Assembly: GCA_043826565.1 (NCBI GenBank) | Contig: JBDRPX010000003.1 | Location: 147,293 to 206,323 of the forward strand | Length of the DNA stretch: 59,031 nucleotides | Reading direction: 5' to 3' | Source of the DNA: Candidatus Omnitrophota bacterium | Lineage (GTDB): Bacteria > Omnitrophota > Gorgyraeia > B26-G9 | Made by a program: the position numbers and the translations under genes | The notes under the pieces: model-generated | The model's input: only the letters and a program-made list of their open reading frames with translations | The model's database searches: none | What the model was told of the DNA's origin: nothing | In this document: one piece after another, positions 21,759 through 39,783 of the stretch | How the letters are laid out: each line of letters begins with the position of its first letter | Position numbering within the stretch: the first letter of the stretch is position 1

Positions 21759-21767
21759 AGGACTAAT

Positions 21768-23171: not shown

Positions 23172-24112
23172 TATTCAGCGGACTAGATAAAAAAATTAAA
23201 AAGTTTTTTAAAGGCGAAGTAAGGGGTAATGAATTCCTCGCCGGTCACACTTCTATGAGAATAGGCGGGCCGGCAAAGTTGTTTCTCATTCCTGAAGATA
23301 TTGATGATTTGTCGGCAGTATTAAAATTTTTAAATGCGAAGAAGATGAAAACAATGGTTATCGGAGCAGGGACTAATCTTTTAATAGATGATCAGGCTCT
23401 GGCGGCGGCGGTTTTAAAATTAGAAGCACCTTTTTTTAAGCAAATAACGCAGAAGGATAATATTCTTTTTGCTTACGCGGGTGTCAATTTGTTATCGTTA
23501 ATAAATTTTGCTAAAATGTGCCGTCTCTCCGGGTGTGAATTTTTATGCGGAATTCCCGGAACTGTAGGCGGGGCATTGTTTATGAATGCCGGTACCCGGG
23601 ATGTTAATGATCCGCAAGGGGTACAGTATAAATGTATTGCCGATATTGTCAAAAATGTTCAGGTTACAGATAGAGCGGGAAATGTATCGATATTGACAAA
23701 AGAGGAATTGAGTTTTGGTTATCGCTGCTCGAATTTAAGGGATTATATTATTTTAGGGGCCTGGTTTGAATTATCTCCGGAAACAACTGATAATATTCAA
23801 AAGTTGATTAATAGATTTTCTTTACACAGGAAAAATACACAGTTTATAAATTTACCTAATGCCGGATGTGTTTTTAAAAATCCGGATAAGGCTCAAATTA
23901 GTGCGGGCAAGCTTATTGAGGATTGTAATTTAAAAGGGCAATCAGTTGGAGATGCGCAAATTTCTGATGTTCATGCTAATTATATTGTAAATAAAGGTAA
24001 TGCCCGGTTTTCTCAGGTTAAAGAGTTGATCGGTAAGGTTCAGAAGGAAGTATACCAGCAGTTTTCTGTCTCTCTTGAGCCGGAAATAGAAATATGGGAA
24101 AACAAAACGTAG
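23168..24112 (+). CDS. murB: UDP-N-acetylmuramate dehydrogenase
   Basis: IGGPA, GAGTN, GIPGTVGG, MNAG, AGCVFKNP, HANYIVN; ATGA overlap with murC. Confidence 0.96.
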   Translation: MIFSGLDKKIKKFFKGEVRGNEFLAGHTSMRIGGPAKLFLIPEDIDDLSAVLKFLNAKKMKTMVIGAGTNLLIDDQALAAAVLKLEAPFFKQITQKDNILFAYAGVNLLSLINFAKMCRLSGCEFLCGIPGTVGGALFMNAGTRDVNDPQGVQYKCIADIVKNVQVTDRAGNVSILTKEELSFGYRCSNLRDYIILGAWFELSPETTDNIQKLINRFSLHRKNTQFINLPNAGCVFKNPDKAQISAGKLIEDCNLKGQSVGDAQISDVHANYIVNKGNARFSQVKELIGKVQKEVYQQFSVSLEPEIEIWENKT

Positions 24113-24133
24113 GGGCGGGGCTTGCCTCCGCCC
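24109..24133 (+). repeat. GTAG-type REP-like hairpin supplying the murB stop codon
   Basis: GTAGGGGCGGGGCTTGCCTCCGCCC; TAG 24110-24112 is the murB stop. Confidence 0.7.
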
Positions 24134-24154
24134 GAACCAAAGAAAATTAAATAT

Positions 24155-25096
24155 ATGCAAGTAAAGAAAATTGGCGTACTCATGGGTGGTTTCTCCAGTG
24201 AACGGGAAATTTCATTAAAATCAGGGAATGCGGTTGTGCAGGCACTCCAATCTTGTGATTTTGATACAGTAATTTTTGATTTTCAGTCTCCTGGGGAACT
24301 TATTGATAAAATAAAGAAAAGTAATGTGGATTGTGTTTTTAATGCATTGCACGGAACTTTTGGAGAAGACGGGCAGGTGCAGCAAATTCTGGACGATTTG
24401 GAGATCCCTTACACCGGTTCCGGAGTTCAGGCTAGTCAGTTAGCTATGGATAAAACAGAGTCACATAATATTTTTAAGGCTAATGGCATTTCTGTCCCGG
24501 AATATGTAGTATTTCGTCCGGGAGACCATTTATCAGAAGAGTGGTTATCATATTTTCCGCTGGTTGTTAAGCCGGCGCATGAAGGCTCAAGTATAGGATT
24601 ATCAATTATCGAAGATGCGGATGATTTGCCGTTGGCCTTAGAAGAAGCTTTTAAATTTGATAAAAAAGTGCTTATTGAACGTTATATAAAGGGAAGAGAA
24701 ATAACTGTCGGCATATTGGAGGATGAGCCTTTACCGGTTATTGAAGTAATTCCTAAGAATAAATTTTATGATTTTCAAGCTAAATATACATTGGGTATGA
24801 CTGAATATAAGGTTCCCGCGTTTTTGCCGGAAACAACTTATTTGCAGGCGCAGTCCTTAGCTCTGAAAGCACACCGGATTTTGGGATGCCGTTGTTTTTC
24901 ACGGGTAGATATGCTTATCGGTCAGGGGGATAAGTTGTTTGTTTTAGAAGTCAATACTATTCCCGGATTTACTTCGACGAGTTTATTGCCTAAAGCTGCC
25001 GCGGCCAGGGGGATTAGTTTTCCGGAGTTATGCCGAAAGATGGTTTTATCTTCAGTCGAAATATTCTCTGAAAAATCTGTTAAATATTCAGAATAA
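24155..25096 (+). CDS. ddl: D-alanine--D-alanine ligase
   Basis: GGFSSEREIS, LHGTFGEDG, GSSIG, YDFQAKY, EVNTIPG; start moved to ATG 24155. Confidence 0.97.
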   Translation: MQVKKIGVLMGGFSSEREISLKSGNAVVQALQSCDFDTVIFDFQSPGELIDKIKKSNVDCVFNALHGTFGEDGQVQQILDDLEIPYTGSGVQASQLAMDKTESHNIFKANGISVPEYVVFRPGDHLSEEWLSYFPLVVKPAHEGSSIGLSIIEDADDLPLALEEAFKFDKKVLIERYIKGREITVGILEDEPLPVIEVIPKNKFYDFQAKYTLGMTEYKVPAFLPETTYLQAQSLALKAHRILGCRCFSRVDMLIGQGDKLFVLEVNTIPGFTSTSLLPKAAAARGISFPELCRKMVLSSVEIFSEKSVKYSE

Positions 25097-25117
25097 TTAA
25101 TAGGAAGGAATTGTGAT

Positions 25118-25954
25118 ATGGCAAGAAGCAGAGGTAAAAGAGGCCGGAATAAGAAGAACATACATCTATTCAATGTTAAAAAAATTAAAATGGCTATACA
25201 GAAAAATGGGTTCCATCTTTTATTTGGTGTTTTGGGAGTTGCTTTTGCTGTGTTTATTATCATAAATATGAGGTCTTTTATTTTTGCTTCCGAACACTTC
25301 AAGGTATATGAAATTGAAATTATTGATAAATATCCGGAAAAGGTAAGTTATCCGTTATCAAAGGTAAACGGCCAAAACATATTTGAAGTAGATTTGAATA
25401 AGGTTGCCCAGGACATTGAAAGACGGTATCCGTATATCCAGAAGGTTATCGTTCAACGGATTCTTCCTAATAAACTATTGATTGAGGTATTGCGCCGCAG
25501 TCCGATAGCTCAAATAGCGATAAATCAAGGACAGAATAAAAATGGGGGGTATTGTTTTTTTAGTGTTAACGATGATGCTTATATCTTAGCTGATCTGGGC
25601 GCACAGCCTAAACAAAGGTTGCCGATTATTTACGGAACAGGATTAAATTTAAATGATGTAGAAATTGGGAAAAGTTACAAAAAATCAAACTTAGAATGTG
25701 CGGTATCTTTTCTTGACGCACTTGGGGAAAATGGTTTTTTAAAACGATATTTAGTTACAAAAATTGATGTCACGGAAATGCCTAATCTTTCTTTCTATAT
25801 TGATAATCGATTGGAAGTGAGAATCGGTAATAGAAATTGGAAAAGAAGAATAGAAACTCTTTGTGGTGTTTTGGAAGATGAAGAGATAGATTCTTCGCAA
25901 GATTATTATATTGATGTACGTTTTAAAGATATCGTGTTTGGAAAGAAATCATAA
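25118..25954 (+). CDS. ftsQ: Cell division protein FtsQ/DivIB
   Basis: Basic N-terminus, one TM, POTRA-like region, C-terminal YIDVRF; position in dcw. Confidence 0.85.
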   Translation: MARSRGKRGRNKKNIHLFNVKKIKMAIQKNGFHLLFGVLGVAFAVFIIINMRSFIFASEHFKVYEIEIIDKYPEKVSYPLSKVNGQNIFEVDLNKVAQDIERRYPYIQKVIVQRILPNKLLIEVLRRSPIAQIAINQGQNKNGGYCFFSVNDDAYILADLGAQPKQRLPIIYGTGLNLNDVEIGKSYKKSNLECAVSFLDALGENGFLKRYLVTKIDVTEMPNLSFYIDNRLEVRIGNRNWKRRIETLCGVLEDEEIDSSQDYYIDVRFKDIVFGKKS

Positions 25955-27237
25955 TGAGAGATCAAATTCCGGTGGTCAGTTTAGATATTGGCAGTGCTAA
26001 GACAACTGTATGTATCGGCAATTTGGATAATGCCGGGCGTGTAGAAATATACACTGCGGTTATGGTCAAGACCAGAGGTCTTGAAAGAGGAATTATTACT
26101 AATCTGGGGGAAGTAGCTTCCGGAATAGAAGAAGCTCTGAGAAAAGCCGAGGCAAAATTTTATACTAGTGAGCATAATAATTTACCGGCGATTAAAAAGA
26201 ATTTCCGGATCGGTTCAGTTTATGTAACGATTAGCGGAGAGCATGTCCTGGGTAACAATACTAAGGCGATGCTAAGTTTGTCCAACCGTTCGGTTGAAAT
26301 AACGCATAATGATTCACAACGGGCAATTGATTCGGCAAAATCTTTGACAACTTCTATTGACCGGGAAATTTTACACGCACTAGCTCAGGAGTTTGTTGTT
26401 GATGGCTATAAAAGGACAAAAGAACCTTTAGGTATTTTCGGAACAAGACTGGGGGTTAATCTGCATATTATCAGCTGTGGAGTGTCTTTTGCCAATAGCT
26501 TGGTAAAAGCAGTTAATCGGGCTGGATTTGATGTTGACGGTATCGTATATTCCGGACTGGCGACAAGTATGGCCATACTTACTGAAGAGGAAAAACAAAC
26601 CGGAGTTATCTTGCTGGAATTGGGCGCCGGGACTACGAATATTCTTTTTTTCATAGAGGGTAGTTTGCAGTATACCAGCGTGATACCCTTAGGCGGCAAT
26701 GATATAACTAAAGAGATTTCGCAGCGATTAGGTATTGATGAGGCCCAGGCGGAGCAGTTAAAAATGCAGTATAAAAATGTCTGTGTCTATTCCGGTAGTA
26801 ATCACCAAGAATGTGATGATAAACTGATCCTGAAAAAGAATTCTTCGAGTTATGAAAGTATTAGTCGCCAGGAGCTGGCATTAATTGTTGATGCAAAGCT
26901 TGGTGATTTGTTTACTCTGGTTAAGAAGGAATTAGATCTTGTGGGAATTACGCAAAGAGCAAAAGGAGGGATTATTATCTCTGGTGGAATGTCCTTTATG
27001 GATGGTATTATAGAGAAGTTGGAAGAATATATTAAACTTCCCGTACATTTAGGCATAATGCGCGGTTTTGTTAGTGGATTTTCCGGATTAAGTAACAGTT
27101 TTTATGCGACGGGTATCGGATTAATAATGCATGCATTAAATGAAAGAACTACGAATGTTCGAACCCGATGTTCAAATAAGGGTATATTAGGCCAGTTATT
27201 ATCTAAGCTTAGGGGTGTTTACGAAGAATACTTCTAA
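25954..27237 (+). CDS. ftsA: Cell division protein FtsA
   Basis: LDIGSAK, ELGAGTT, GGNDIT, SGG, YATGIGL, C-terminal amphipathic helix. Confidence 0.93.
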   Translation: MRDQIPVVSLDIGSAKTTVCIGNLDNAGRVEIYTAVMVKTRGLERGIITNLGEVASGIEEALRKAEAKFYTSEHNNLPAIKKNFRIGSVYVTISGEHVLGNNTKAMLSLSNRSVEITHNDSQRAIDSAKSLTTSIDREILHALAQEFVVDGYKRTKEPLGIFGTRLGVNLHIISCGVSFANSLVKAVNRAGFDVDGIVYSGLATSMAILTEEEKQTGVILLELGAGTTNILFFIEGSLQYTSVIPLGGNDITKEISQRLGIDEAQAEQLKMQYKNVCVYSGSNHQECDDKLILKKNSSSYESISRQELALIVDAKLGDLFTLVKKELDLVGITQRAKGGIIISGGMSFMDGIIEKLEEYIKLPVHLGIMRGFVSGFSGLSNSFYATGIGLIMHALNERTTNVRTRCSNKGILGQLLSKLRGVYEEYF

Positions 27238-27252
27238 TAAAGGAAAGAAAAG

Positions 27253-28203
27253 ATGAAAGAGGATACTTTTATTCTAGTTATTGATGATGAGCAGAGTGTT
27301 CTGGAGAGTTTTGCCGAAGTTTTTGAAAAAGAGGGGTATCAGGTTACTCTATCTGAGACTTGGGCCCAAGCATATGAAGAATTAAAAAGACGAAAATTTA
27401 ATCTTGTAATAACGGATGTAAATATGCCGGATGTAGGGTATGAGCAAGTTATCAAAGATGTTAAGCATTCGAATAAGTCGACATATGTTCTGACAACAGC
27501 CGGGTATTCGGATATTGATAAAGCGATGGATTCCCTGCATCATGGAGCACAGGATTATATTAGTAAGCCTTTTGATCCGATTGATATTATTAACTCAATG
27601 CGTAGAATTGTGGAAAAGCAGAAATTGCAGAGTGATAATATCCAACTTTTTGAAACGATTAAGGCTCTGGCGATGGCATTGGATGCTCGTGATCATTATA
27701 CTCATGGGCATTCGCAACAGGTGACTGATTATTCCGTGGCAATTGCCACGGAAATGGACTTGAGTCTAGAGGATATCGAACGAATACGTGACGCGGGATT
27801 ACTGCATGATATCGGAAAAATTGGGATCGCCGATGCGGTTTTACTTAAACCGGGCCGGCTTACCGATGAGGAATATGCCCAAATTAGAAAACATCCGGAA
27901 ATCGGCAAGAAAATTCTTTCTCCGGTACGTTCTTTAACTGATAAAATTCCTTTGATTTATCACCATCATGAACGTTATGATGGTGGAGGCTATCCGGATG
28001 GGTTAAAAGGGGAGAATATCCCCTTGGGGGCAAGAATTTTAGCAGTTGCCGATTCCTATCAGGCCATGACATCAGATCGTCCGTATAGAAAAGCGTTACC
28101 AATGGAAGTGGCCATAAGTGAATTGAATAAGGGCAGAGACAAGCAATTTGATACAAAAATTGTTGATATATTCATAGAAGTATTAAAGAAAAATGTGTTT
28201 TAA
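27253..28203 (+). CDS. Response regulator with HD-GYP phosphodiesterase domain
   Basis: REC (IDDE, TDVNMP, KPF) plus HS..V, HDIGK, HHERYDGGGYP, DRPYR. Confidence 0.93.
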   Translation: MKEDTFILVIDDEQSVLESFAEVFEKEGYQVTLSETWAQAYEELKRRKFNLVITDVNMPDVGYEQVIKDVKHSNKSTYVLTTAGYSDIDKAMDSLHHGAQDYISKPFDPIDIINSMRRIVEKQKLQSDNIQLFETIKALAMALDARDHYTHGHSQQVTDYSVAIATEMDLSLEDIERIRDAGLLHDIGKIGIADAVLLKPGRLTDEEYAQIRKHPEIGKKILSPVRSLTDKIPLIYHHHERYDGGGYPDGLKGENIPLGARILAVADSYQAMTSDRPYRKALPMEVAISELNKGRDKQFDTKIVDIFIEVLKKNVF

Positions 28204-28239
28204 CCGCGTAAGAAAGAAACCGGACTAGGGGGGAATGCA

Positions 28240-29337
28240 ATGGATATAGATTTAGTAGAAGTTCTAAAATCGATGGTGGGACAGGACGCCTCTGATGCGC
28301 ATTTTAAAGTCGGCCGTACTCCGATTTTTCGTATAAAGAAAGAATTGCTTAATTCCGCATTTCCAATTTTATCAAATAAGGATATAGAAAAGATTGCATA
28401 TTTTATGATGCGTGAGCGGCATCGCCGCGAATTTGAACGCAAGAATGAAATAGATTTTTCTTATCAATTGCCGGATGTCGGAAGGTTTAGAGTGAATGTT
28501 TTTAGACAACGGGGAGATGTCGGGATAGTTATGCGTATTGTAAAAAGCAAAATTCCCAGTTTTGAGGATTTGAGTATCCCAAAAATTTTTGAACAAATTG
28601 CTATGTATGAAAGAGGTATTGTTTTAGTCACGGGTGCCAGTTCTATGGGGAAGTCGACAACTCTTGCGGCCATGATTGATTATATTAATTCGCACAAAAA
28701 ATCACATATTGTAACGATAGAGGACCCTATTGAATATGTGCATGATGATAAAAAATCTATTATTAATCAGCGTGAAGTTGGTTTGGATACGGAATCTTTT
28801 CAACAGGCTTTGCGTTATGTTATCCGGCAGGATCCGGATATAATCCTGATTGGGGAAATGCGTGATGCGGAGTCATTTCAAACAGCATTAGGTGCTGCGG
28901 AAACAGGCCATTTGGTATTTAGTACCCTGCATGCTTCGGACACTTCTCAGGTAGTAGACAGAATCCTGGACTTTTTCCCGACTCCGCAGCATGCTATGGT
29001 CCGGATGCAGCTTTCATTTAACTTAAAAGCAGTAACCTGTCAGCGTCTTATGCCTCTTCAAGACGGCAGTGGAGTTGTTCCGGCTGTGGAAATTATGCTT
29101 ATTAATCCTATGGTAATGAAACTTATTAGAGAAAACAAAACGGAACGGCTTCAGAGTACATTGCGTAGTTTTTCTGATCAAGGAATGATTACCTTCAACC
29201 AGTCATTGGTCAGCCTGGTTCAATCAAATCGTATTTCTTTAGAATCGGCACTAGCTAATTCTAGTAATCCGGAAGCATTAAAGATGAATATAAAAGGTAT
29301 TTACCTTGATGAGGACCGCAGGATTCTAGGTGAGTAG
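28240..29337 (+). CDS. PilT/PilU-family type IV pilus ATPase
   Basis: ASDAH, RFRVN, Walker A GASSMGKST, TIEDPIE, RQDPD, GEMRD, TGHLVFSTLH. Confidence 0.92.
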   Translation: MDIDLVEVLKSMVGQDASDAHFKVGRTPIFRIKKELLNSAFPILSNKDIEKIAYFMMRERHRREFERKNEIDFSYQLPDVGRFRVNVFRQRGDVGIVMRIVKSKIPSFEDLSIPKIFEQIAMYERGIVLVTGASSMGKSTTLAAMIDYINSHKKSHIVTIEDPIEYVHDDKKSIINQREVGLDTESFQQALRYVIRQDPDIILIGEMRDAESFQTALGAAETGHLVFSTLHASDTSQVVDRILDFFPTPQHAMVRMQLSFNLKAVTCQRLMPLQDGSGVVPAVEIMLINPMVMKLIRENKTERLQSTLRSFSDQGMITFNQSLVSLVQSNRISLESALANSSNPEALKMNIKGIYLDEDRRILGE

Positions 29338-30727
29338 CCACAATTATTCCTTCATTAATAAGGAAGTTAATACTGTTTTTCTTAAAAAGAATGCGCGTTT
29401 TAAAATTGCGCTTGTTTATCCGAATACCTACCATGTCGGTATGAGTAATTTGGGATTCCAGTCTATTTATAATCAATGGAACAGCCGTCCGGATACCTTA
29501 TGCGAAAGGTTTTTTTACGAACCGGCTAAAAAACAGCTATTATCCGTGGAAAGCAGAAGCCAGCTTAATTCCTATGATGTTGTTGCGTTTTCTCTATCCT
29601 ATGAGCTTGATTATGTGCATTTCTTGAGTGTTCTCCGAGGCGCGGGCTTATTAGGGGATCGTACCCAGCGTTCAATTATGCCGTTGATTATTGTCGGGGG
29701 AGTAGTTACTTCATTTAATTGTTTACCTCTTTCCGAATTTTGTGACGTGGTATTTGTGGGCGAGGCTGAGGAATCGATTAACGAATTTATGGACATCTTA
29801 GCTAATTATGCGCATATGGGAGGAGCATCTAAAAAGGAAAAATTTTTAACGCAAATTTCCCAAATGCCAGGAGTCTTTGTTTCCGGCTATTCTTTGACAA
29901 AAGACATCGCTCCCCGGATAGTCCAAGAAGTGGATCTTTATCCGACTTCTTCTCGTGTGCTTACCGCACATACGGAGTTTTCAAACATATTTTTAACCGA
30001 AATTTCCCGTGGCTGCCCCTGGGGGTGTAAGTTTTGTGCTACGGGTTCGGTTTTTAATAAATTCAGACCGCGGAGTTTAGATGTTTTAACCAGGGAAATT
30101 AGTATGGGGATGAAATATTCTTCCCGTATCGGACTTATTGGAGCGGCTATATCTGATCATCCGCAAATTGAAGGACTGGTAACTTTTTTAAAGCAAAAGA
30201 ATGCTAAAATTTCTGTTTCCAGTTTGAGAATTGAAACAGTAAAAAAACATTTACTTGAAGCTCTGTCTGAAACCGGGCAGCGGACAATTACGTTTGCTCC
30301 GGAAGCAGGGTCGGAACAATTACGCAGATATTTGAAAAAGAATATAAGCGATGAAGAGATTATGGAAAAAATTAATATGGCTAAAAAGGCGGGGATAAAA
30401 AAAATCAAGCTGTATTTCATGGTCGGTTTGCCTGTCGAGGAGCAAAAAGATATTGAGGCAATTGTTGGTCTTATAAAATCTTCGGCGCGGATCCTTCCGG
30501 TTAAGACCCATATCGGAATATTTGTTCCTAAACCGAAAACTCCTTTTGCCGGGGAGAAAATTGCTGATAAAAAGACGATTACTGCAAGAATGCGGTATTT
30601 ACAGCGTAATCTGGCTGCTGCTGAGGGCATTGAATTTTCTGCCAGAAAGGTGCGGGAAGCAATGCAGGAAGCGCAATTTTCTTCTGCTGATGAGAATTTT
30701 TTTGTAGATTTTGCAAAAAATCACTGA
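29330..30727 (+). CDS. Radical SAM protein (B12-binding-like N-terminus, TIGR03960-related)
   Basis: YPNTYHVGMSNLG, EISRGCPWGCKFC, APEAGS, KLYFMVGLP, FVPKPKTPF. Confidence 0.85.
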   Translation: MSSHNYSFINKEVNTVFLKKNARFKIALVYPNTYHVGMSNLGFQSIYNQWNSRPDTLCERFFYEPAKKQLLSVESRSQLNSYDVVAFSLSYELDYVHFLSVLRGAGLLGDRTQRSIMPLIIVGGVVTSFNCLPLSEFCDVVFVGEAEESINEFMDILANYAHMGGASKKEKFLTQISQMPGVFVSGYSLTKDIAPRIVQEVDLYPTSSRVLTAHTEFSNIFLTEISRGCPWGCKFCATGSVFNKFRPRSLDVLTREISMGMKYSSRIGLIGAAISDHPQIEGLVTFLKQKNAKISVSSLRIETVKKHLLEALSETGQRTITFAPEAGSEQLRRYLKKNISDEEIMEKINMAKKAGIKKIKLYFMVGLPVEEQKDIEAIVGLIKSSARILPVKTHIGIFVPKPKTPFAGEKIADKKTITARMRYLQRNLAAAEGIEFSARKVREAMQEAQFSSADENFFVDFAKNH

Positions 30728-30751
30728 TTGGATACGTAAAATTCGGCTTAA

Positions 30752-30781
30752 TTGACAAGAAGCCTCTCTCTGTGGTAATAT
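30752..30781 (+). promoter_or_regulatory. Putative sigma70 promoter of the two-component/DGC genes
   Basis: TTGACA-N18-TAATAT with extended TG. Confidence 0.6.
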
Positions 30782-30828
30782 GAAATATTAATGTAAGATA
30801 TTCTAAGATAGAATGTTATAGGATTAAT

Positions 30829-32151
30829 ATGCGAAATAAAATTATTTTTATATTCGGAATCTTAAGTTTAATATTCCTGGTCATACTCGTCAGCACAAAC
30901 ATTATATTTCATTTTCGGCATACGCTTGCTTTAGAGAAAGAAAAAGCCTGGGGATTATCTAAGATACTGGCTAAATCTTTGGACCTGCCCATGGTTGCCG
31001 GAGAAATGGATACGGTCGCCGAAATTCTTCTTGCTGTCGGGGAATTAAAGGATTTAAAGCGTGTTCATATAACTGATGCTGTTGGAGTAATCAGGTATAG
31101 TTCTGACCCCAGATTTGTGAATATCCCCAGCCAATCCGAGATTGTAAAAAGAGCGATTAATGAAAAGAAAAATATCGGAGATTTTGAGCAAAGAGGTAAT
31201 GATTATTTGTTCAGTTTAGCCCTGCCGCTGTTAAATGAAGAACGTTGTTATAGTTGTCACAGTGCGGAACATGATGTTTTGGGAGTGCTGAGAGTCGGGA
31301 TTGACTGGGATCCGGTACAGAATGATCTTATGAATATTGTGCAAAAGGATGTCATTATATCGGCAATATTCTATCTGCTGATTTTATTTTTATCGATTTT
31401 ATTTCAAAGATTTTACAATGCCGCACAATTGGCTTATAAGAATCTTGAAGAGGCTCAAGGACAGCTTATAAAAGCAGAAAAGATGGCGGCTATCGGGCAG
31501 ATGGCGGCAGCCATAAGCCATGATTTAAGAAACCCGCTTACCGGGATAAAGATGGCGACTTATTATTTAAGCAGTAAAATTGATAAAAATAAGATTGAAT
31601 TAGTAACGATACTCAAAGATATAGAGTTAGAGATTGATTACGCCAGTAATGTTGTGACGAATATTTTGACATATTCAAAACCCACAGAATTAATTTGCAC
31701 ATATGCTGATATAAATAAAGTGATAAAAGAGACAATGCCGTTTTTACATTTACCAAGCCGGGATTCAGATATAGTTTTAGTAACCAAGTATGCTTCAAAT
31801 ATACCGGAGATGCTTATGGATGTTAAGCAGATGAAACAGGTGATTGTTAATTTGCTGACAAATGCAGTGCAGGCAATGCCTAAAGGCGGAAAGCTGACCA
31901 TAAGTACATCTATAGTCGGTGAATTTGTCGAAATGATGGTAAATGATACGGGTGTCGGGATCTCCAGCGATGATCGAGAGAAAATATTTAATCCTTTTTT
32001 TACGACTAAAGCAAGAGGGGTTGGCCTAGGATTATCCATAGTATTTAATATTGTTAATCGTCATGAAGGGGCGGTAGACGTTTATACGGACAGAGGACGG
32101 GGGACAACATTTATTGTCAAGCTGCCGATGCGCCAACGAAGCCAGGATTAG
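30829..32151 (+). CDS. Membrane sensor histidine kinase with periplasmic CxxCH (c-type heme) motif
   Basis: Two TMs; CYSCH; HDLRNPL; NAVQAM; DTGVG; PFFTTK; GVGLGL. Confidence 0.9.
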   Translation: MRNKIIFIFGILSLIFLVILVSTNIIFHFRHTLALEKEKAWGLSKILAKSLDLPMVAGEMDTVAEILLAVGELKDLKRVHITDAVGVIRYSSDPRFVNIPSQSEIVKRAINEKKNIGDFEQRGNDYLFSLALPLLNEERCYSCHSAEHDVLGVLRVGIDWDPVQNDLMNIVQKDVIISAIFYLLILFLSILFQRFYNAAQLAYKNLEEAQGQLIKAEKMAAIGQMAAAISHDLRNPLTGIKMATYYLSSKIDKNKIELVTILKDIELEIDYASNVVTNILTYSKPTELICTYADINKVIKETMPFLHLPSRDSDIVLVTKYASNIPEMLMDVKQMKQVIVNLLTNAVQAMPKGGKLTISTSIVGEFVEMMVNDTGVGISSDDREKIFNPFFTTKARGVGLGLSIVFNIVNRHEGAVDVYTDRGRGTTFIVKLPMRQRSQD

Positions 32152-32171
32152 GCGGTAGTAAGGGAAAAGTT

Positions 32172-33044
32172 ATGAATTACCAAAAGATGAATAAGCTGAT
32201 AAAAGAAGCGAAAAATATAAGTTATTTGTGCGAAATTATTTTAAAAGGAATCGACGGCCTGGATGCCAAGCAGCGCAAACAACTGATGAAATCAATAAAT
32301 GTCAGAATAACGCAGTTGGACAAGAATGAAAAGGCTGAATTCGATGGTGTCCGTCGTTCGATCCATTCGGAACGTCTTGCGGCAATGGGGCATATGGCCG
32401 CGGCGATTAGCCATGAACTAAGAAATCCCTTAAGCGGTATAAAGGTTGCCGCGGAATATCTATTGAGAAAACTTAAGGCGGAGGCGGATGTCCGTGATAT
32501 TATAATAAATATTCATAATGAGGTAATTTTTGCTAATACGATTATCTCAAATATTTTAGAGCATGCGAGAATTGGGGTGCCTAGTTTAAAGAAAACATCA
32601 TTAAAAAAAGTTATCGAAGAGGCTTTGTTGACAGTCGCGCAACAGGGGTATTTTAATAATATTTCCATAAATAAGCAGATTCCCGGCGATCTTCCCCTAA
32701 TGAATCTTGATTCAATGCAGATACGGCAGGTGTTTATGAATCTATTTAACAACTCAGCGGAAGCAATGCTTGGCGGCGGGGAGTTAAAAATTAAAGTGGT
32801 TAAAGATAAAGGAACGGCAGTTATCACGATTGCCGATAACGGTGTGGGAATAGAAAAGGAATATGTTGAGAAATTGTTTGAACCGTTTTTCACTACGAAA
32901 GTAAAAGGTGTAGGGTTAGGGCTGGCTATAACGAAAGAGATTATTGAAAATCACGAAGGCCGGATAAAGGTGGAGAGTAAGCAAGGTAAGGGGGCTAAGT
33001 TTATTATCTGTCTGCCTCTGGCAAGGAAAAACAAAAAAGATTAA
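32172..33044 (+). CDS. Cytoplasmic histidine kinase lacking a recognisable sensor domain
   Basis: HELRNPL; NSAEAM; DNGVG; PFFTTK; no TM segment. Confidence 0.9.
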   Translation: MNYQKMNKLIKEAKNISYLCEIILKGIDGLDAKQRKQLMKSINVRITQLDKNEKAEFDGVRRSIHSERLAAMGHMAAAISHELRNPLSGIKVAAEYLLRKLKAEADVRDIIINIHNEVIFANTIISNILEHARIGVPSLKKTSLKKVIEEALLTVAQQGYFNNISINKQIPGDLPLMNLDSMQIRQVFMNLFNNSAEAMLGGGELKIKVVKDKGTAVITIADNGVGIEKEYVEKLFEPFFTTKVKGVGLGLAITKEIIENHEGRIKVESKQGKGAKFIICLPLARKNKKD

Positions 33045-33073
33045 AAGTGTTTGATAACCAAAAAGGCGCAGCA

Positions 33074-33454
33074 ATGGTGATTGAGGAGAAAAAATTGAAC
33101 ATATTGGTTGTTGATGATGAGGAAATAGTCAGGGAGACGATTAAGAGAATATTGAAAAGTGAAGGTTTTTGTGTAACAGTGGCTGAATGCGGTAATTCCG
33201 CAATAGAATTGGCCAAAACTAGTGAAATGGATGTCGCGCTTTTAGATATTAAATTACCGGGTATTGACGGGATAGATACATTAATAAAACTTAAGGAGAT
33301 TAACCCAAGGCTTGAAGCGGTTATGATGACAGCTTATGAGGTAACTGAGCGGATTGAAAAGGCATTTAAAGAAGGAGCGATTGCCTGTTTGCATAAGCCG
33401 TTTGACATCCAAACATTACTGGATATTTTTAATGAATTGAAAAAGAAAAAATGA
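33074..33454 (+). CDS. Single-domain response regulator
   Basis: VDDE, LDIKLP, TAY, KPF; start 33074 (or GTG 33047). Confidence 0.9.
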   Translation: MVIEEKKLNILVVDDEEIVRETIKRILKSEGFCVTVAECGNSAIELAKTSEMDVALLDIKLPGIDGIDTLIKLKEINPRLEAVMMTAYEVTERIEKAFKEGAIACLHKPFDIQTLLDIFNELKKKK

Positions 33455-34890
33455 AAGATAAAAATAATTTTTCTCCTAATATTTTGCTTGTAGATGATGA
33501 AAAAGTCATCAGAGAGACATTGTGTTCGATCTTAATAGAAGATGGATATCGCGTATCCACAGCAAAGTCAGGAAAAGAAGCTGTGGCTTTGTCAAAAGAA
33601 AGTAATTTTGACCTTGTGATTTTAGATTTAAAACTTCCGGATATCGGAGGACTGCAGGTATTGCGTGATATAAAGGGATATCAGCCGGATATCTGCGCGG
33701 TATTGATCACGGCTTACCCGACTACAGAATCGGCGATAATGGCCATACAGGAAGAAGCGTATGAATATATAACGAAACCGTTTGATATAAGCCATGTGAA
33801 ACTTGTTATTAAACGAGGTATCGAAGAGAAACAGCTTGCCTTTGAAAATAAAAAACTTCTTAATAATCTACAGGATGAAAAAGAAAAACTCGAAACCATG
33901 CTTCATATTGGACATCTGATGAGTTCTATCCTAAATCTCGATAAATTGGCCGGAGTTATTGTCCAGAAAATTGCGGATGTTTTAAAAGCCCGGATTTGTT
34001 CTCTGATGCTTTTAGATGAAGAGGAGGAGGTTCTGGTTATTAAAGCAGCGATTGGACTTGATGATGCGGTTGTCAGAACTACCCGGATAAAACTGGGACA
34101 GTCTATTAGCGGTTGGGTAGCCGAACGTGGAGAGTCGGTTTTGGTTAGTGATATTGAAACGGATATGCATTTTGGCCGGGCTAATCTTCCTAAATACGAA
34201 ACAAAATCGTTATTGTCGATACCTCTTAAAGCCAAGGGGCGGGTTTTGGGAGTTATTAATGTTGCGGACAAAAAAGTAATTGGGCAAACTAATGTTTTCA
34301 CTCAGGAAGATTTACAGTTTATTGCGGTAATTTGTAATTATGCAGCTATTGCTATAGAGAATGCACAGCTATACGGAGAAGTTAAAAATTTGGCGATAAC
34401 TGATGGTTTGACTAATTTATTTAACCATCGATATTTTCAAACACAGCTGCAAACTGAGGTTGCCCGTGTGCAGCGTTATCCTCATCCGTTGTCATTGATA
34501 ATGTTTGATATCGATTCCTTTAAACAATTTAATGATACCTATGGACACCCCATGGGAGATTTAGTGCTTAGCCAAATAGGAAAAACCATTAAAAAAACAG
34601 TTCGCAAAGTTGATATCGCCTGTCGTTATGGAGGCGAAGAATTTGCCGTGATCCTGCCGGAAACAAAAATTAAAGAGGCAATTGTCGTTGCGGAAAAAAT
34701 AAGGCTGGCTGTAGAAAAAATGAAGTTTGAAACCGGCAAAGAGTCGAAGAAAGAAAAGATGACGATAAGCGGCGGCGTGGCGGAATTTAGTAAAGGGATG
34801 ACCAAAGAAGAATTTGTTACATTAGCTGATGATGCCTTATACGAGGCAAAAAGCACCGGCAAGAATAAAATATGCGTTCATGGGAGATAG
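33451..34890 (+). CDS. Diguanylate cyclase (REC-GAF-GGDEF)
   Basis: REC; GAF; TDGLT, DIDSFK, I-site RKVD, GGEEF. Confidence 0.93.
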   Translation: MKDKNNFSPNILLVDDEKVIRETLCSILIEDGYRVSTAKSGKEAVALSKESNFDLVILDLKLPDIGGLQVLRDIKGYQPDICAVLITAYPTTESAIMAIQEEAYEYITKPFDISHVKLVIKRGIEEKQLAFENKKLLNNLQDEKEKLETMLHIGHLMSSILNLDKLAGVIVQKIADVLKARICSLMLLDEEEEVLVIKAAIGLDDAVVRTTRIKLGQSISGWVAERGESVLVSDIETDMHFGRANLPKYETKSLLSIPLKAKGRVLGVINVADKKVIGQTNVFTQEDLQFIAVICNYAAIAIENAQLYGEVKNLAITDGLTNLFNHRYFQTQLQTEVARVQRYPHPLSLIMFDIDSFKQFNDTYGHPMGDLVLSQIGKTIKKTVRKVDIACRYGGEEFAVILPETKIKEAIVVAEKIRLAVEKMKFETGKESKKEKMTISGGVAEFSKGMTKEEFVTLADDALYEAKSTGKNKICVHGR

Positions 34891-34894
34891 AAAA

Positions 34895-35026
34895 AAGTTA
34901 CAAGTCACAAGTTTCAAGTTTTAAGTAAAAGATAAAAATAAAAGATGGAAAAAGGATTGAAAGTTGACAGTTGATGGTTGGAATTAATATTTTTACAATT
35001 TTCAATATTCAACATTCAATATTCAA
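34895..35026. repeat. 7-nt-periodic arrays, including an inverted pair
   Basis: (aagttac)(aagtcac)(aagtttc)(aagtttt); (attgaaa)(gttgaca)(gttgatg) opposite (ttttcaa)(tattcaa)(cattcaa)(tattcaa). Confidence 0.75.
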
Positions 35027-35030
35027 TATA

Positions 35031-35738
35031 ATGATTCAAAAACGCTTAGAGTTTCTTAAAGAAAGAGTTAATCAAGCTGCTCAGAAAACCGGCAGGTCTT
35101 TAAACGATATAGAAATTGTTTGTGTAACAAAACAAGCTCGTTTAGAAGATGTTAGTATGCTTATAAAAGCAGGTTGTTTTCAAATAGCAGAAAATCGTCT
35201 TCAGAAGGCAGTGGAAAAAAAAGATTTTTTAAAACATACTCTGTCTGAAGATGATTTTTTACGTTTGCGTTGGCATTTAGTGGGACATTTACAGACAAAC
35301 AAAGTGTCCAAGGCCGTAAAGATGTTCCAGTTAATACAATCTGTGGACAGTTTGCGGCTGGCCTCTCTGATTAGCGAGCAGTCTCAAAAGCTTAAAAAAA
35401 AGATAGATATTCTTGTCCAAATTAATATTTCCGGCGAAGATTCTAAGTTTGGAGTGGACTTTGAACAGGCAAAAGAAATTATTCCGCAAACAATGAAATT
35501 GCCCGGATTGAATTTAAAAGGACTTATGGGAATTGGGCCGTTTATTGATGATCTTGATCAGATCAGGCTTTGTTTTCGGAGGCTGCGTGAATTTTATGAT
35601 CAAGAGAATAAAATGCTATTATTAAATTTTAAAGCAGAGATGTCGATATTATCAATGGGAATGAGCGATGATTTTGAGATAGCTATTGAAGAAGGCTCTA
35701 CCATGATCAGAGTGGGAAGAACAATTTTCGGAGGATAA
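35031..35738 (+). CDS. yggS: PLP homeostasis protein YggS
   Basis: VCVTK, ENR, WHLVGHLQTNK, SMGMSDDF, GSTMIRVG; start moved past the repeat to ATG 35031. Confidence 0.93.
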   Translation: MIQKRLEFLKERVNQAAQKTGRSLNDIEIVCVTKQARLEDVSMLIKAGCFQIAENRLQKAVEKKDFLKHTLSEDDFLRLRWHLVGHLQTNKVSKAVKMFQLIQSVDSLRLASLISEQSQKLKKKIDILVQINISGEDSKFGVDFEQAKEIIPQTMKLPGLNLKGLMGIGPFIDDLDQIRLCFRRLREFYDQENKMLLLNFKAEMSILSMGMSDDFEIAIEEGSTMIRVGRTIFGG

Positions 35739-35747
35739 TTAAACTAT

Positions 35748-36539
35748 ATGAAGATAGGAATAATCGGCGCAGGCAATATGGGAGAAGCCATAATCAGAGG
35801 GCTGGTTAAGAAAAAAGGAACAGTTGTCTGGGTATGCGAAAATAACAAAAAACGTCAGGATGAGATTTGCCGGGCTTACCGGGTAAAAAAGATTACTCTT
35901 GAACAATTTAAAAATATGTGTAATATAATTATACTTTGTGTTAAACCGCAAAATATGGACGAAGTTCTTTGTTCTCTTAGTTTCGGAGTAAATAAGAAGA
36001 ATTTGCTTATATCAATTGCTGCGGGGGTGACGACCTCGCATATTCAGAAATTTTTTAAATCGAAAGTTCCGGTAGTTAGGGTAATGCCGAATATGCCGGG
36101 AATGATCGGACAAGGGATCTCTGCTTATTGCCTGGGAAAATATGTCAGAGCTAAGGATGAAAAGAATACTAAGGCAATATTTTCTAATCTGGGGGAAACA
36201 CTTAAAACAACAGAAAATAAAATGAATGCTATAACTGCAGTAAGTGGTAGCGGTCCTGGGTTTCAGGCATATTTTATGGCTGGGTTGGAAGAAGCAGCGA
36301 GTGCTGTAGGATTAACTAAACAAGAAGCAAGACTTCTATCTATATCTGCAAGTGCTGGATCAGCTAATATGGTGAGTTTAGAAGGCAGTGATCCCTCAAA
36401 GATGGTAGAACGGGTTGCCTCTAAGGGTGGCACTACGGAAGCTGGGCTTAATGAGCTTATAAAGGGAAAATTTAAGAGAATAATTAAAAATGCCATTAAA
36501 TCAGCGGTCAAAAGAGCAAAGGAGTTAAGTAAGGATTGA
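35748..36539 (+). CDS. proC: Pyrroline-5-carboxylate reductase
   Basis: GAGNMG, VKPQ, SIAAG, RVMPN, SGSGP, SKGGTT. Confidence 0.95.
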   Translation: MKIGIIGAGNMGEAIIRGLVKKKGTVVWVCENNKKRQDEICRAYRVKKITLEQFKNMCNIIILCVKPQNMDEVLCSLSFGVNKKNLLISIAAGVTTSHIQKFFKSKVPVVRVMPNMPGMIGQGISAYCLGKYVRAKDEKNTKAIFSNLGETLKTTENKMNAITAVSGSGPGFQAYFMAGLEEAASAVGLTKQEARLLSISASAGSANMVSLEGSDPSKMVERVASKGGTTEAGLNELIKGKFKRIIKNAIKSAVKRAKELSKD

Positions 36540-36541
36540 TT

Positions 36542-39376
36542 ATGGATACACAGATTGACTATAAAAAAACAATTAATTTACCGAACACTGAATTTTCTAT
36601 GAAGGCTAATCTTCCTCAGAAGGAACCGAGTACTTTAGAAAAGTGGGAAGAGCAGAAACTTTATAAAAAAATGTTAGAACATTCTAAACATAAGCCTAAA
36701 TATGTTTTACATGACGGGCCTCCGTATGCTAATGGGAATATTCATATTGGGCATGCTTTGAATAAAATCTTGAAGGATATTATCGTTAAATACAAATCAA
36801 TGCGCGGTTTTTCTGCCGCCTATGTCCCGGGGTGGGATTGCCATGGGCTGCCGATTGAACACCAGTTGTTTAAAAAACTTAAAAAACATAAAGATGAAGT
36901 AGAACAGGTTGAGTTCAGAAAACAAGCCCATGATTTTGCGATGAAATATGTGGATATTCAAAGAGAAGAGTTTAAGAGATTAGGGGTCTTTGGCGATTGG
37001 GAAAATCCTTATATTACATTGAACCATGATTATGAAGCATCAATAATTCAGTCTTTCGGGGCCTTGGTTGAAAAAGGATATATTTATAAGGGGTGTAAGC
37101 CGGTTAACTGGTGCTGCAGCTGTGAAACAGCATTAGCCGAAGCAGAAGTCGAATATGAGGACCATACTTCACCTTCAATTTATGTAAAGTTCCAAGTAAA
37201 AGAAAATCAGAGTATCCTGGATATGGAGTTTTTCGAGGGCAGAAAAGTACATCTTGTGATTTGGACAACTACTCCGTGGACATTGATCGGTAATGTTGCC
37301 TGTGCGGTTCATCCTGAATTTATATATGTTTTTGTTTCGCTTGGTAATGAAATCTGGATTCTGGAAAAAAACCTTGCTCCGGCGGTATTGGAAAAAGCAG
37401 GAGTGAGTGATTATAAGATTATAAAGGAAGTTCCGGGGAAAGCATTAGAAAATATTGAATATACTCATCCGTTTGGTTTTCGTACGGGAAAAGTAGTACT
37501 TGCTGACTATGTCTCTAGTGAAGACGGCTCAGGCCTTGTGCATACTGCTCCCGGACATGGAGTCGATGATTTTAATACCGGTAAACGCTATGGCCTGGAT
37601 GTAGTTATGCAGGTAGATGAAAAGGGCCGGTTTTTTAAAGATGTTCCTCAGTTCGGCGGCCAGCATGTATGGAAAGCAAACCCGATGATTTTGGAGGCGC
37701 TTAAAGATAATGGCGCCTTAGTATTTGGCGGAGAGATACAGCATTCTTATCCGCATTGCTGGAGATGTAAGAAGCCGATTATTTTCCGGGCAACGGAACA
37801 GTGGTTTATGAGCATAGACCACAATAACTTAAGAAAAGATATCCTTAATGAGATTCCTAAGTTAAAATGGGTTCCGGCATTTGGGGAAAACCGCATAACG
37901 AGTATGGTAGAGAATAGACCGGATTGGTGTCTTTCCCGGCAGCGTTTATGGGGTGTGCCAATTCCAGTGTTCTATTGTTTGAGTTGTAATACGCCGGTTT
38001 TGGATAAAGATGTAATTACTCACTTTGCTAAAATAGTTGAAGAAGAGGGTACGGATAGCTGGTTTATCCGGCAAGCAAAAGATCTTTTACCTTCAGAATA
38101 TACTTGTGAAAAATGTAATAGTAGTGAATTTAGAAAAGAAACTGATATTCTTGATGTTTGGTTTGATTCCGGAGTAAGTCATCAGGCTGTGGTTAAGAAA
38201 AATTCTGACTTGCAATTTCCAGCAGACCTTTATCTGGAAGGATCAGACCAGCATCGCGGCTGGTTTCAGGCATCATTGATTCCCGGGATGGCCATAGAAG
38301 GATGCGCGCCTTTTAAAGGAGTTTTAACCCATGGGTTTACCGTTGATGGACAAGGGAAGAAGATGTCCAAATCGCGCGGTAATGTTATAGCTCCGCAGGA
38401 AGTTATAAAGCGTTTAGGTGCGGATGTCTTAAGATTATGGGTAGCTTCTTCTGATTATACCGGTGATATCAGGATTTCGGATGAAATATTGTCCCGCAAC
38501 AGCGAAAGTTATCGAAAGATTCGTAATACGCTGAAATTTATATTTGGCAATCTTTCTGATTTTAATCCGGAAAATGATTCTTTAGAGTATGAAGAGTTGC
38601 AGGAAATTGATCGCTGGGCATTATCTGAGTTGCATAGGTTGATAAAACAGGTTACCCAAGCCTATGATAAATTTGCTTTTTATCAGGTTAATAAGCTTAT
38701 ATATACTTTTTGTATTGTAGAAATGAGCTCGTTCTACTTAGATGTTTTAAAAGATCGTCTATATACTTTGTCAAAAAATTCTCCGGTACGCCGATCGGCG
38801 CAGACTGTTTTGCATGAAGTGGTGACTACAATTGTCAGGATTATTGCTCCGGTTTTGTCTTTTACCGCTGAAGAGGCCTATGGTTTTGTTCCGGGAGAGC
38901 ATCGAGAGAGTGTATTTTTAACGTCCTGGCCGGAATATAAAGATCAATATATTAATGAACAGCTTAATAATACCTGGAAGTTTCTTTTGGATGTTCGCAA
39001 CAGTGTGTTAAAAGAACTCGAGGAAGCACGGGGTAGTAAGCTTATTGGAAACAGCTTGGAAGCAAAAGTTATAATCTCTTATTCAGCGGGAGAAGGGGAA
39101 ATCGAGAAAGTTTTTAATGATCATTTTGAATGTTTGCCGGGGATTTTTATTGTATCTCAAGTTGGTCTTAATTCAGATATTGACAGTAGTAATACGGCAG
39201 TATATAATGTAGACCTTCTGAATAAGAATAATGAAATTGTGAACGGACAGATAAAAATACAGATTGAACGTGCCCAAGGCGATAAGTGTGTGCGTTGTTG
39301 GAATTACTCTGAAAGTGTGGGAACAATTGAGCAGCATCCGCTGTTGTGCGACCGTTGCCGAGCCAACTTAGAGTAG
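36542..39376 (+). CDS. ileS: Isoleucine--tRNA ligase (type 1)
   Basis: HDGPPYANG-HIGH, WDCHGLPIE, KMSKS, C-terminal CVRCW..CDRC zinc finger. Confidence 0.98.
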   Translation: MDTQIDYKKTINLPNTEFSMKANLPQKEPSTLEKWEEQKLYKKMLEHSKHKPKYVLHDGPPYANGNIHIGHALNKILKDIIVKYKSMRGFSAAYVPGWDCHGLPIEHQLFKKLKKHKDEVEQVEFRKQAHDFAMKYVDIQREEFKRLGVFGDWENPYITLNHDYEASIIQSFGALVEKGYIYKGCKPVNWCCSCETALAEAEVEYEDHTSPSIYVKFQVKENQSILDMEFFEGRKVHLVIWTTTPWTLIGNVACAVHPEFIYVFVSLGNEIWILEKNLAPAVLEKAGVSDYKIIKEVPGKALENIEYTHPFGFRTGKVVLADYVSSEDGSGLVHTAPGHGVDDFNTGKRYGLDVVMQVDEKGRFFKDVPQFGGQHVWKANPMILEALKDNGALVFGGEIQHSYPHCWRCKKPIIFRATEQWFMSIDHNNLRKDILNEIPKLKWVPAFGENRITSMVENRPDWCLSRQRLWGVPIPVFYCLSCNTPVLDKDVITHFAKIVEEEGTDSWFIRQAKDLLPSEYTCEKCNSSEFRKETDILDVWFDSGVSHQAVVKKNSDLQFPADLYLEGSDQHRGWFQASLIPGMAIEGCAPFKGVLTHGFTVDGQGKKMSKSRGNVIAPQEVIKRLGADVLRLWVASSDYTGDIRISDEILSRNSESYRKIRNTLKFIFGNLSDFNPENDSLEYEELQEIDRWALSELHRLIKQVTQAYDKFAFYQVNKLIYTFCIVEMSSFYLDVLKDRLYTLSKNSPVRRSAQTVLHEVVTTIVRIIAPVLSFTAEEAYGFVPGEHRESVFLTSWPEYKDQYINEQLNNTWKFLLDVRNSVLKELEEARGSKLIGNSLEAKVIISYSAGEGEIEKVFNDHFECLPGIFIVSQVGLNSDIDSSNTAVYNVDLLNKNNEIVNGQIKIQIERAQGDKCVRCWNYSESVGTIEQHPLLCDRCRANLE

Positions 39377-39392
39377 AAAGGAGCAGAGTAAA

Positions 39393-39764
39393 GTGAATAA
39401 AAATGAATCCAAGGAATTTAAGCAGAAACTGATCGATTTGCGCGGTAAAGTTACCGAAGAGATTAAACATTTAGGAGAAAATGGCATAAATAAATCACAA
39501 AGAGAGGCAAGTGGTGATTTATCCGCATATACTTTTCATATGGCTGATGTTGCTAGCGACAGCTATGACCGGGAACTTTCTTGGGACAGGGTAAGCGGTG
39601 AGCAAAAGGTGCTTTATCTGATTGATGAGGCTTTGAAAAAAATAGAAGAAGGGAATTACGGTGTGTGTGAGTCCTGTTCAGGTAAAATCAAAAAAGAGCG
39701 TCTTAAAGCGATACCTCATTGTAAACTGTGTCTGAAGTGTAAACAGCAACTTGAAAAAAAGTAA
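39393..39764 (+). CDS. TraR/DksA-family C4 zinc-finger regulator
   Basis: Coiled-coil with HMADVASD; CESC...CLKC. Confidence 0.88.
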   Translation: MNKNESKEFKQKLIDLRGKVTEEIKHLGENGINKSQREASGDLSAYTFHMADVASDSYDRELSWDRVSGEQKVLYLIDEALKKIEEGNYGVCESCSGKIKKERLKAIPHCKLCLKCKQQLEKK

Positions 39765-39783
39765 ATACATAGGCTGATATGCC

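Follow-up and report, generated by a model that had tools for sequence, protein, structure and literature searches.

The 59,031-nt stretch of Candidatus Omnitrophota DNA described here (the window) carries a division and cell wall (dcw) gene cluster that is intact from mraZ to ftsA but contains no ftsZ. The usual place of the ftsZ start (27238-27252, + strand) is a gap of 15 nt, TAAAGGAAAGAAAAG, between the ftsA stop codon, which ends at 27237, and the ATG of the next gene at 27253, and that gene predicts a response regulator with an HD-GYP domain (REC-HD-GYP). No ftsZ was found elsewhere in the genome or in any of 201 genomes of the phylum. The best explanation overall, and a likely one, is that ftsZ has been lost phylum-wide, that septation is independent of FtsZ and involves FtsA and/or MreB, and that the PilT-containing block past ftsA is a neighbour of the deleted gene.

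The window lies on contig C3 of a 2,581,971-bp genome from an uncultured groundwater member of Candidatus Omnitrophota, a metagenome-assembled genome (MAG) of 39 contigs with 91.06% completeness and 2.26% contamination. Genes in the window were named from a listing of open reading frames (ORFs) together with NCBIfam and Pfam scans, and FtsZ was sought with TIGR00065, PF00091 (Tubulin), PF12327 (FtsZ_C) and PF13809 (Tubulin_2). TIGR00065 has no match in the window genome, and the three Pfam models have none even at E≤10. FtsZ was likewise found in 0 of 41 relatives and, with the FtsZ model, in 0 of 201 Omnitrophota genomes, of which 151 are at least 90% complete and which include G171 (1.55 Mb) and G176 (1.97 Mb), each a single contig. 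Run on 14 control genomes, the FtsZ, Tubulin and FtsZ_C searches recover their target in 13, and the absence is therefore more than chance.

A reading of the window made from its sequence alone (the sequence-only reading) had proposed that ftsZ was either relocated or lost, and had named a hidden Markov model search for an ftsZ elsewhere as the means of telling which. That search, now run on the genome and its relatives, found none. ftsZ is not relocated within the recovered genome, and the second option, loss, is the one that the whole-genome and phylum searches support. We infer that ftsZ was lost at or near the root of Omnitrophota, and that its absence is a trait of the whole phylum.

FtsA and the retained division proteins

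The ftsA gene of the window (25954-27237, + strand) is full length and exceeds the curated cut-off of its family (TIGR01174, 291.4 bits, cut-off 175.85). The best solved relatives of its product are the FtsA of V. maritimus [PDB 7q6f] (4.1e-54) and that of E. coli [PDB 7q6d] (2.3e-50). Aligned to the E. coli protein, subdomain 1C has 81 residues (79 in E. coli) and subdomain 2B has 77 (74 in E. coli), and the 2B helices and hairpin are present in an AlphaFold model with a mean predicted local distance difference test (pLDDT) score of 88.4. The phosphate-1 and adenosine motifs of the ATP site are intact, and phosphate-2 differs only by a D-to-E replacement. The C-terminal tail, ...LLSKLRGVYEEYF (...VYEEYF), resembles the end of E. 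coli FtsA (...WLRKEF), and residues 411-426 are modelled as a helix that, by this likeness, is predicted to target the membrane. On these sequence features the protein is a conventional FtsA.

FtsA is found in 200 of the 201 genomes at E≤0.001 and exceeds the curated cut-off in 92 of them, and every match listed is an ORF without internal stops. The FtsZ and FtsA surveys apparently covered the same 201 genomes, the tallies by family being identical. The mean column identity of the alignment is only 36%, and F427 is invariant with Y426 at least 90% conserved; YF is the terminal pair in 45 of 47 Omnitrophota FtsAs, and of the other two one ends in NF and one is cut by the end of its contig. Columns equivalent to R300 and E303 of E. 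coli FtsA, which we take to be FtsZ contact residues, vary across 45 Omnitrophota FtsAs. Phosphate-2 is eroded in many of the proteins: of 53 aligned FtsAs, 4 have G at the position of E. coli G214 and 10 have T at that of T215. Tyr or Phe stands in place of the phosphate-1 Asp in 9 of the 53, and the window FtsA is among the conservative members of the set.

Short FtsAs of 331-366 amino acids (aa) occur in families f5, f11, f25, f26 and f44, and in all 18 of these only 8-24 of the 74 residues of 2B are left [loci L041:7665-8726 (-), L043, L050, L052, L060 and L070-L082]. Subdomains 1A, 1C and 2A and the C-terminal YF tail are retained. Subdomain 1C has 80-83 residues in all sequences tabulated and 81-82 in all 18 short forms, and a further 13 of 13 short FtsAs also end in YF. 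The model of one short form (pLDDT 91.6; template modelling score 0.78-0.83 to FtsA structures) is missing both helices and the hairpin of 2B. In a rough FastTree tree built without the 2B columns, f5, f11, f25 and f26 fall together and f44 apart, which suggests that 2B was deleted at least twice independently. In E. coli, deletion of 2B is reported to abolish FtsZ binding, and 1C to serve self-interaction and the recruitment of FtsQ and FtsN [PMC4281207]. Loss of 2B with 1C and the tail kept is the pattern expected if FtsZ binding had become dispensable, while the membrane and divisome-recruiting functions would have stayed under selection.

Apart from FtsZ the divisome is kept, periplasmic and membrane parts included, namely FtsA, FtsQ, FtsB, an FtsL-like protein, FtsW, FtsI and FtsK, and so is MreB. 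The window genome scores 513.8 bits for MreB, 231.7 for FtsK and 66.9 for FtsB/DivIC, and MreB exceeds its cut-off in 80 of 81 genomes, at about 500-530 bits throughout. FtsE is ambiguous, the best ABC ATPase in the window genome reaching 215.7 bits against a cut-off of 264.85. Among the proteins that act with or on FtsZ, ZapA was found in 0 of 201 genomes by a search that recovers it in only 4 of 14 controls, and MinC in 0 of 201 over cut-off by a search that recovers it in 6 of 14, with one match of 20.5 bits in a 63-aa frame. In the window genome the best MinD match has 59.5 bits against a cut-off of 212.9, SepF has no match and DivIVA none over cut-off. RodZ_C was also not found there, by a search that recovers it in only 5 of 14 control genomes.

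These data bear on a different account of the retained genes, according to which division is driven by MreB much as in Chlamydia and FtsA survives as a decaying remnant that does little or nothing. MreB is near-universal at cut-off and very conserved, which would fit such an account, as would the divergence of FtsA (17-31% identity between families and fewer than half of the genomes over cut-off), the loss of 2B in some families and the erosion of phosphate-2. The FtsA ORFs are nevertheless intact in every match listed, FtsA is present in 200 of 201 genomes, the terminal YF belongs to the very small number of positions that do not vary, and 1C is kept in all sequences tabulated. A relic would not persist across a whole phylum, and RodZ_C was not found in the window genome. 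Decay of FtsA to a remnant is therefore unlikely.

A second FtsA-like actin-fold protein, of 715 aa, is encoded on contig C19 of genome G000 [L065:4004-6151 (+)]. It scores 109.6 bits with TIGR01174, under the cut-off, and 1.5e-9 with Pfam FtsA. Its C-terminal extension of about 340 aa has no family match, and the gene is located between cheB-cheA-cheC and topA-xerC-type genes.

The dcw cluster and the genes downstream of ftsA

The cluster forms a same-strand array, mraZ-rsmH-(ftsL)-ftsI-murEF-mraY-murD-ftsW-murGCB-ddl-ftsQ-ftsA, that is collinear with other dcw clusters, and family names were obtained for 14 of the 15 genes. The statement of the sequence-only reading that this part is intact is thus borne out by NCBIfam and Pfam. 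All genes are on the + strand. The array begins with mraZ (10324-10764; TIGR00242, 157.5 bits, cut-off 98.35) and rsmH, also known as mraW (10706-11662; TIGR00006, 342.5 bits). The next ORF (11693-12064) predicts a small bitopic protein of 123 aa that has no NCBIfam or Pfam match and is called ftsL-like from its position between rsmH and ftsI and its topology, with an N-terminal hydrophobic membrane helix in the translation. It is followed by a class B penicillin-binding protein gene (12127-13845) named ftsI by position, for which the SpoVD, PBP2 and FtsI models give 568 to 317 bits, all under their equivalog cut-offs. murE, murF, mraY and murD (13845-19476) score 604.5 (NF001126), 425.2 (TIGR01143), 383.8 (TIGR00445) and 429.2 bits (TIGR01087), all over cut-off, and ftsW (19547-20635) scores 402.4 bits (TIGR02614, cut-off 337.5). 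murG, murC, murB and ddl (20637-25096) are also all over cut-off, with 251.2 (TIGR01133), 527.8 (TIGR01082), 307.1 (NF010480) and 371.7 bits (NF002378). ftsQ (25118-25954), immediately upstream of ftsA, matches Pfam POTRA_1 (2e-9, 38.1 bits) and FtsQ_DivIB_C (5.8e-4, 21.1 bits).

Seven genes separate ftsA from yggS. The first (27253-28203) combines Response_reg (78.5 bits) with HD_5 (138.4 bits) and carries HD at residue 185, HHHE at 236-239 and GYP at 246; by domain and motifs its product fits the HD-GYP class of cyclic di-GMP (c-di-GMP) phosphodiesterases, and its position 15 nt past the ftsA stop is as the sequence-only reading had it. It is followed by a gene for a type IV pilus ATPase of the PilT/PilU family (28240-29337; TIGR01420, 446.4 bits, cut-off 319.1), one for a radical SAM protein (29330-30727; Radical_SAM_N2 and Radical_SAM, TIGR03960-like), two for histidine kinases (30829-33044; HisKA and HATPase_c), and two (33047-34890) for a stand-alone receiver protein and a REC-GGDEF diguanylate cyclase with GGEEF at residue 394. 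The array then resumes with yggS (34971-35738; TIGR00044, 179.6 bits), proC (35748-36539; TIGR00112, 234.9 bits) and ileS (36536-39376; TIGR00392, 998 bits), and ileS is followed by a DksA-like gene and lspA. All of these are on the + strand. It had been noted from the sequence that sepF, yggT and divIVA are missing from the resumed array, and this agrees with the searches of the genome for SepF and DivIVA; yggT is absent between proC and ileS, which overlap and leave no room for it, and no genome-wide yggT search was made.

Compared with the canonical E. coli cluster, mraZ...ftsQ-ftsA-ftsZ, the window is unchanged in gene order between mraZ and ftsA and has the same yggS...ileS block downstream. 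The window differs in that ftsA is followed not by ftsZ but by the REC-HD-GYP gene, in the seven genes that precede yggS, and in the failure to detect SepF, or DivIVA over cut-off, in the genome. An extended form of the region, ftsZ-yggS-sepF-yggT-divIVA-ileS, is present in Firmicutes and Actinobacteria.

In 8 of 8 close relatives, with FtsAs 53-61% identical to that of the window, ftsQ-ftsA is followed after 13-63 nt by same-strand ORFs with sizes that match REC-HD-GYP, PilT, the radical SAM protein and the two kinases, and Pfam confirms REC-HD-GYP in both of the two relatives scanned. The same ftsA-REC-HD-GYP-PilT-radical SAM-kinase order is seen in L004 [CAYTGV010000014.1], labelled 'uncultured Planctomycetia bacterium'; its FtsA is 57% identical to that of the window and the label is probably wrong.

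From other families of the phylum, 40 loci were fetched, ftsA was located in 38, and 35 had at least one gene past ftsA; the first three ORFs past ftsA of each were scanned with Pfam, 100 proteins in total. None of the 100 resembles a tubulin. In 6 of the 35 loci the next gene past ftsA is yggS, in 2 it is proC, in 3 gcvT, in 4 a PilT-like ATPase gene (L023, L030, L053 and L054, and additionally in L014) and in 20 something else, including giant proteins of 2,287-2,427 aa. In 11 of the 35 loci, yggS or proC is found within three ORFs of ftsA, with yggS-proC-yggT-PNP-ileS as the typical continuation. Of these loci, only L042 has an HD-GYP gene past ftsA, on the opposite strand. Across families, ftsA thus now abuts yggS, proC, pilT or unrelated genes. 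What the families share is the block found past ftsZ in other bacteria, minus ftsZ itself, which has dropped out cleanly. A conserved uncharacterised gene past ftsA was considered as an FtsZ substitute and rejected, the ORFs of this kind varying between families.

Some of these loci have features of their own. The giant ORFs, in two unrelated families [L021:1-7283 (-) and L052:1-6861 (-)], run to the edges of the fetched stretches, so that their lengths of at least 2,427 and 2,287 aa are lower bounds; they are located one small ORF downstream of ftsA and have no Pfam match at E≤1e-6. The pair of PilT-like ATPase and Radical_SAM_N2/Radical_SAM genes (28240-30727 in the window) recurs directly after ftsA in family f54 of another class [L030:5427-7917 (-)]. 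There gcvT follows the pair, and in three further families gcvT-gcvH-gcvP is directly after ftsA.

It could be argued that the block past ftsA replaces or regulates the missing FtsZ step, for example through constriction driven by an ATPase or timed by c-di-GMP. The 15-nt gap, the shared strand and the lack of a terminator-like site in the gap indicate that ftsA and the block are probably co-transcribed; the order is conserved in all 8 relatives, and in L014 and four other families the gene next to ftsA encodes a PilT-like ATPase. Over 24000-41000, neither promoter-like sites (54 against 51.3 in shuffles) nor terminator-like sites (9 against 12.0) are in excess. However, the arrangement is not phylum-wide, the first gene not being PilT-like in 31 of the 35 other-family loci, the only HD-GYP gene in those loci is on the opposite strand, and the ATPase scores as an ordinary PilT/PilU. 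E. coli K-12 has the PilT-type gene yggR beside yggS-yggT, and linkage of pilT to yggS therefore exists independently of ftsZ loss. A role for the block in place of FtsZ is accordingly very improbable. The PilT-centred module may instead provide c-di-GMP control of pilus retraction, and some of the block was probably long established next to yggS and not inserted into the place of ftsZ.

The description of the region in the sequence-only reading, a signalling block in the slot of ftsZ, holds for the presence of the block. It does not hold for a purely signalling character, as a PilT ATPase and a radical SAM enzyme are included, and the pilT-type neighbour of yggS in E. coli makes an insertion in place of ftsZ improbable for part of the block. 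The present arrangements would follow from an ancestral order ftsQ-ftsA-ftsZ-(pilT)-yggS-proC-yggT-...-ileS if a single deletion of ftsZ, at the base of the phylum or close to it, had brought ftsA next to pilT/yggS, and if pilT had subsequently been surrounded by c-di-GMP and two-component genes in the family of the window.

Elsewhere in the window, four radical SAM genes, two of them with B12-binding domains, and a methyltransferase gene (193-6618) are found upstream of glycosyltransferase genes and a gene for a Wzy_C/TPR protein that come just before mraZ. A 1,025-aa ORF (52295-55372, - strand) with no Pfam family at E≤1e-8 adjoins a PilZ-domain gene (55509-55943).

Searches for a divergent or missed FtsZ

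A very divergent FtsZ or other tubulin-fold protein encoded elsewhere could have escaped sequence searches, in which case division would still be based on a tubulin. To avoid the first-look filter of a profile search, all 10,343 six-frame ORFs of at least 60 aa from the whole 2.58-Mb genome were compared by phmmer --max with E. coli FtsZ from NC_000913.3. The best match has an E value of 0.62 (8.4 bits), and E. coli FtsA, used as a control query on the same ORFs, recovers the window FtsA at 8.1e-52. The tubulin signature GGGTG[ST]G does not occur in any of the 10,343 ORFs, which extends to the genome what the sequence-only reading had reported for the window. Relaxed forms are matched only by two ORFs of about 295 aa on contig C34 with GGGSGTG. 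These were considered as tubulins and rejected (E=23-25 with FtsZ); we take them to be phosphate-binding PstS-like proteins.

The Tubulin model was also run over a wider sample of 401 Omnitrophota genomes, 341 of high quality, and gave two matches over cut-off (45.7 and 50.4 bits) and two weak ones. The two over cut-off are TubZ/RepX-like, which demonstrates that the model is able to detect divergent tubulins. They score only 50-54 bits with TIGR00065, for which the cut-off is 295, and have 399-427 aa, a TubZ-like C-terminal domain and RepX as best solved relative. Although from two families, they are 71% identical, and they are surrounded by unrelated genes outside the dcw cluster. Their genes are at L066:1012-2295 (-) and L067:1318-2517 (+), and both proteins have a GGGTGSG loop. 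By sequence and context they are probably sporadic, mobile proteins of the TubZ type.

Sequence methods have limits, two of 401 genomes do hold a divergent tubulin, and the window FtsA keeps 2B, the subdomain that binds the FtsZ tail. Against a concealed FtsZ stand the empty profile, phmmer and signature searches, the lack of the TubZ-like pair in 399 of 401 genomes and its location outside dcw, which suggest a mobile element and not a core gene, the failure to find the partners MinC and ZapA, and the deletion of 2B in several families. Such a protein is most improbable.

The junction itself was compared with other assemblies. A 23,953-nt contig from run X1, built with a different assembler, spans 25500-29000 with 0 differences at a word depth of 176; X1 is a groundwater metagenome that may be the source sample and is not an independent one. 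Run X2 gave only 151-nt pieces, none spanning the junction, and two metatranscriptome runs gave only short pieces, 90-95% alike to the window. As the order is shared by 8 of 8 relatives and bridged by the X1 contig, the junction is real and the misassembly that had been raised as a possible refutation is excluded. An artefactual absence, with ftsZ in the roughly 9% of this 39-contig MAG that was not recovered or at a misassembled junction, has next to no probability in view of that bridge, the shared gap of 13-63 nt, and the absence of FtsZ from all 201 genomes, single-contig ones included.

A possible mode of division without FtsZ

The absence of FtsZ from Omnitrophota is already in print. 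A figure legend in Pende et al. 2021 [Nat Commun 12:3214, PMC8178401] lists Planctomycetes, Omnitrophica and Chlamydiae as lacking FtsZ, with FtsA and SepF also absent only in Planctomycetes and Chlamydiae. That entry concerns the same phylum and makes the same statement as here, in one sentence that does not extend to synteny, FtsZ partners, the FtsA tail or 2B, all of which are given here. FtsZ, FtsA and MreB go unmentioned in the main text of the Omnitrophota survey of Seymour et al. 2023. A literature search found no analysis of the dcw locus or of FtsA in Omnitrophota, though the supplementary tables of Pende et al. and the Figure 5 data of a 2025 iScience paper may list calls for individual genomes. 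The present analysis contributes large-scale confirmation and a description of the locus; the absence itself had been seen before. The suggestion from the sequence that loss of ftsZ with ftsA kept would be an intermediate state does not stand, as the loss is neither recent nor local but a published trait of the whole phylum.

Among FtsZ-less bacteria, Omnitrophota are a distinct variant, since FtsA and the whole cluster are retained. Chlamydiae, in which a septal peptidoglycan ring is organised by MreB, RodZ and FtsK, similarly have no FtsZ, and MreB, FtsK, FtsQ, FtsW, FtsI and the peptidoglycan genes are present here. However, FtsA is absent from Chlamydiae and near-universal in Omnitrophota, RodZ_C was not found in the window genome, and the dcw cluster is contiguous here. 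Planctomycetota, which divide by budding or fission, share the loss of ftsZ within the Planctomycetes-Verrucomicrobia-Chlamydiae (PVC) group but have also lost ftsA and ftsB, and some orders are without most mur genes and ftsW, all of which are present here.

Division following phylum-wide loss of ftsZ, the explanation considered likely above, could proceed as follows. Septal peptidoglycan would be synthesised by FtsW-FtsI with FtsQLB in the absence of a Z-ring. FtsA would be the membrane adaptor, held by its conserved C-terminal ...YF helix, and would recruit FtsW-FtsI/FtsQLB through subdomain 1C. MreB would be the likely guiding filament, providing circumferential guidance as in Chlamydiae, and the PilT/c-di-GMP block would be a neighbour exposed by the deletion of ftsZ and expanded in the family of the window. 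A more specific form of this is possible but doubtful, namely that FtsA, no longer a tether for FtsZ, is an autonomous, membrane-bound organiser of FtsQLB-FtsWI that acts beside MreB in an elongasome-like divisome. In the family of the window, with its intact 2B and the probable co-transcription of ftsA with the c-di-GMP/PilT module, 2B might then have a new partner, and division might be coupled to pilus activity and to surface or host attachment.

Several points weigh against an FtsZ-independent division organised in this way. The mechanism is deduced from genes, and the genomes sample the phylum and are for the most part MAGs. FtsA is fast-evolving (about 150-330 bits, with the low identity between families given above), which would fit a reduced role. 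The window FtsA keeps a full 2B of 77 residues and near-intact ATP motifs, and if FtsZ is gone no known partner explains this. 2B also forms a longitudinal filament contact (Nierhaus et al. 2022), and its loss thus speaks against FtsA serving as a filament scaffold in the families concerned. The low recovery of ZapA and MinC in controls makes their absences weaker evidence than that of FtsZ, and the failure to find RodZ_C weakens the analogy with Chlamydia. Finally, a 2017 PVC review and the 2025 iScience paper treat Omnitrophica or Omnitrophota as FtsZ-bearing or dcw-complete. The FtsZ-positive Omnitrophica of the PVC reviews rests on the MAG OLB16, the sole Omnitrophica reported to have FtsZ. 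OLB16 now belongs to a separate phylum, Ca. Hinthialibacterota, and this reassignment removes the conflict in the literature.

Omnitrophota represent a third natural arrangement, in which FtsZ and its regulators alone have disappeared from an otherwise whole divisome that includes FtsA. This arrangement separates the service of FtsA to FtsZ from a role of FtsA that is its own. The graded series within the phylum, from the full-length FtsA of the window to FtsAs without the FtsZ-binding subdomain, provides concrete proteins in which the two can be compared.

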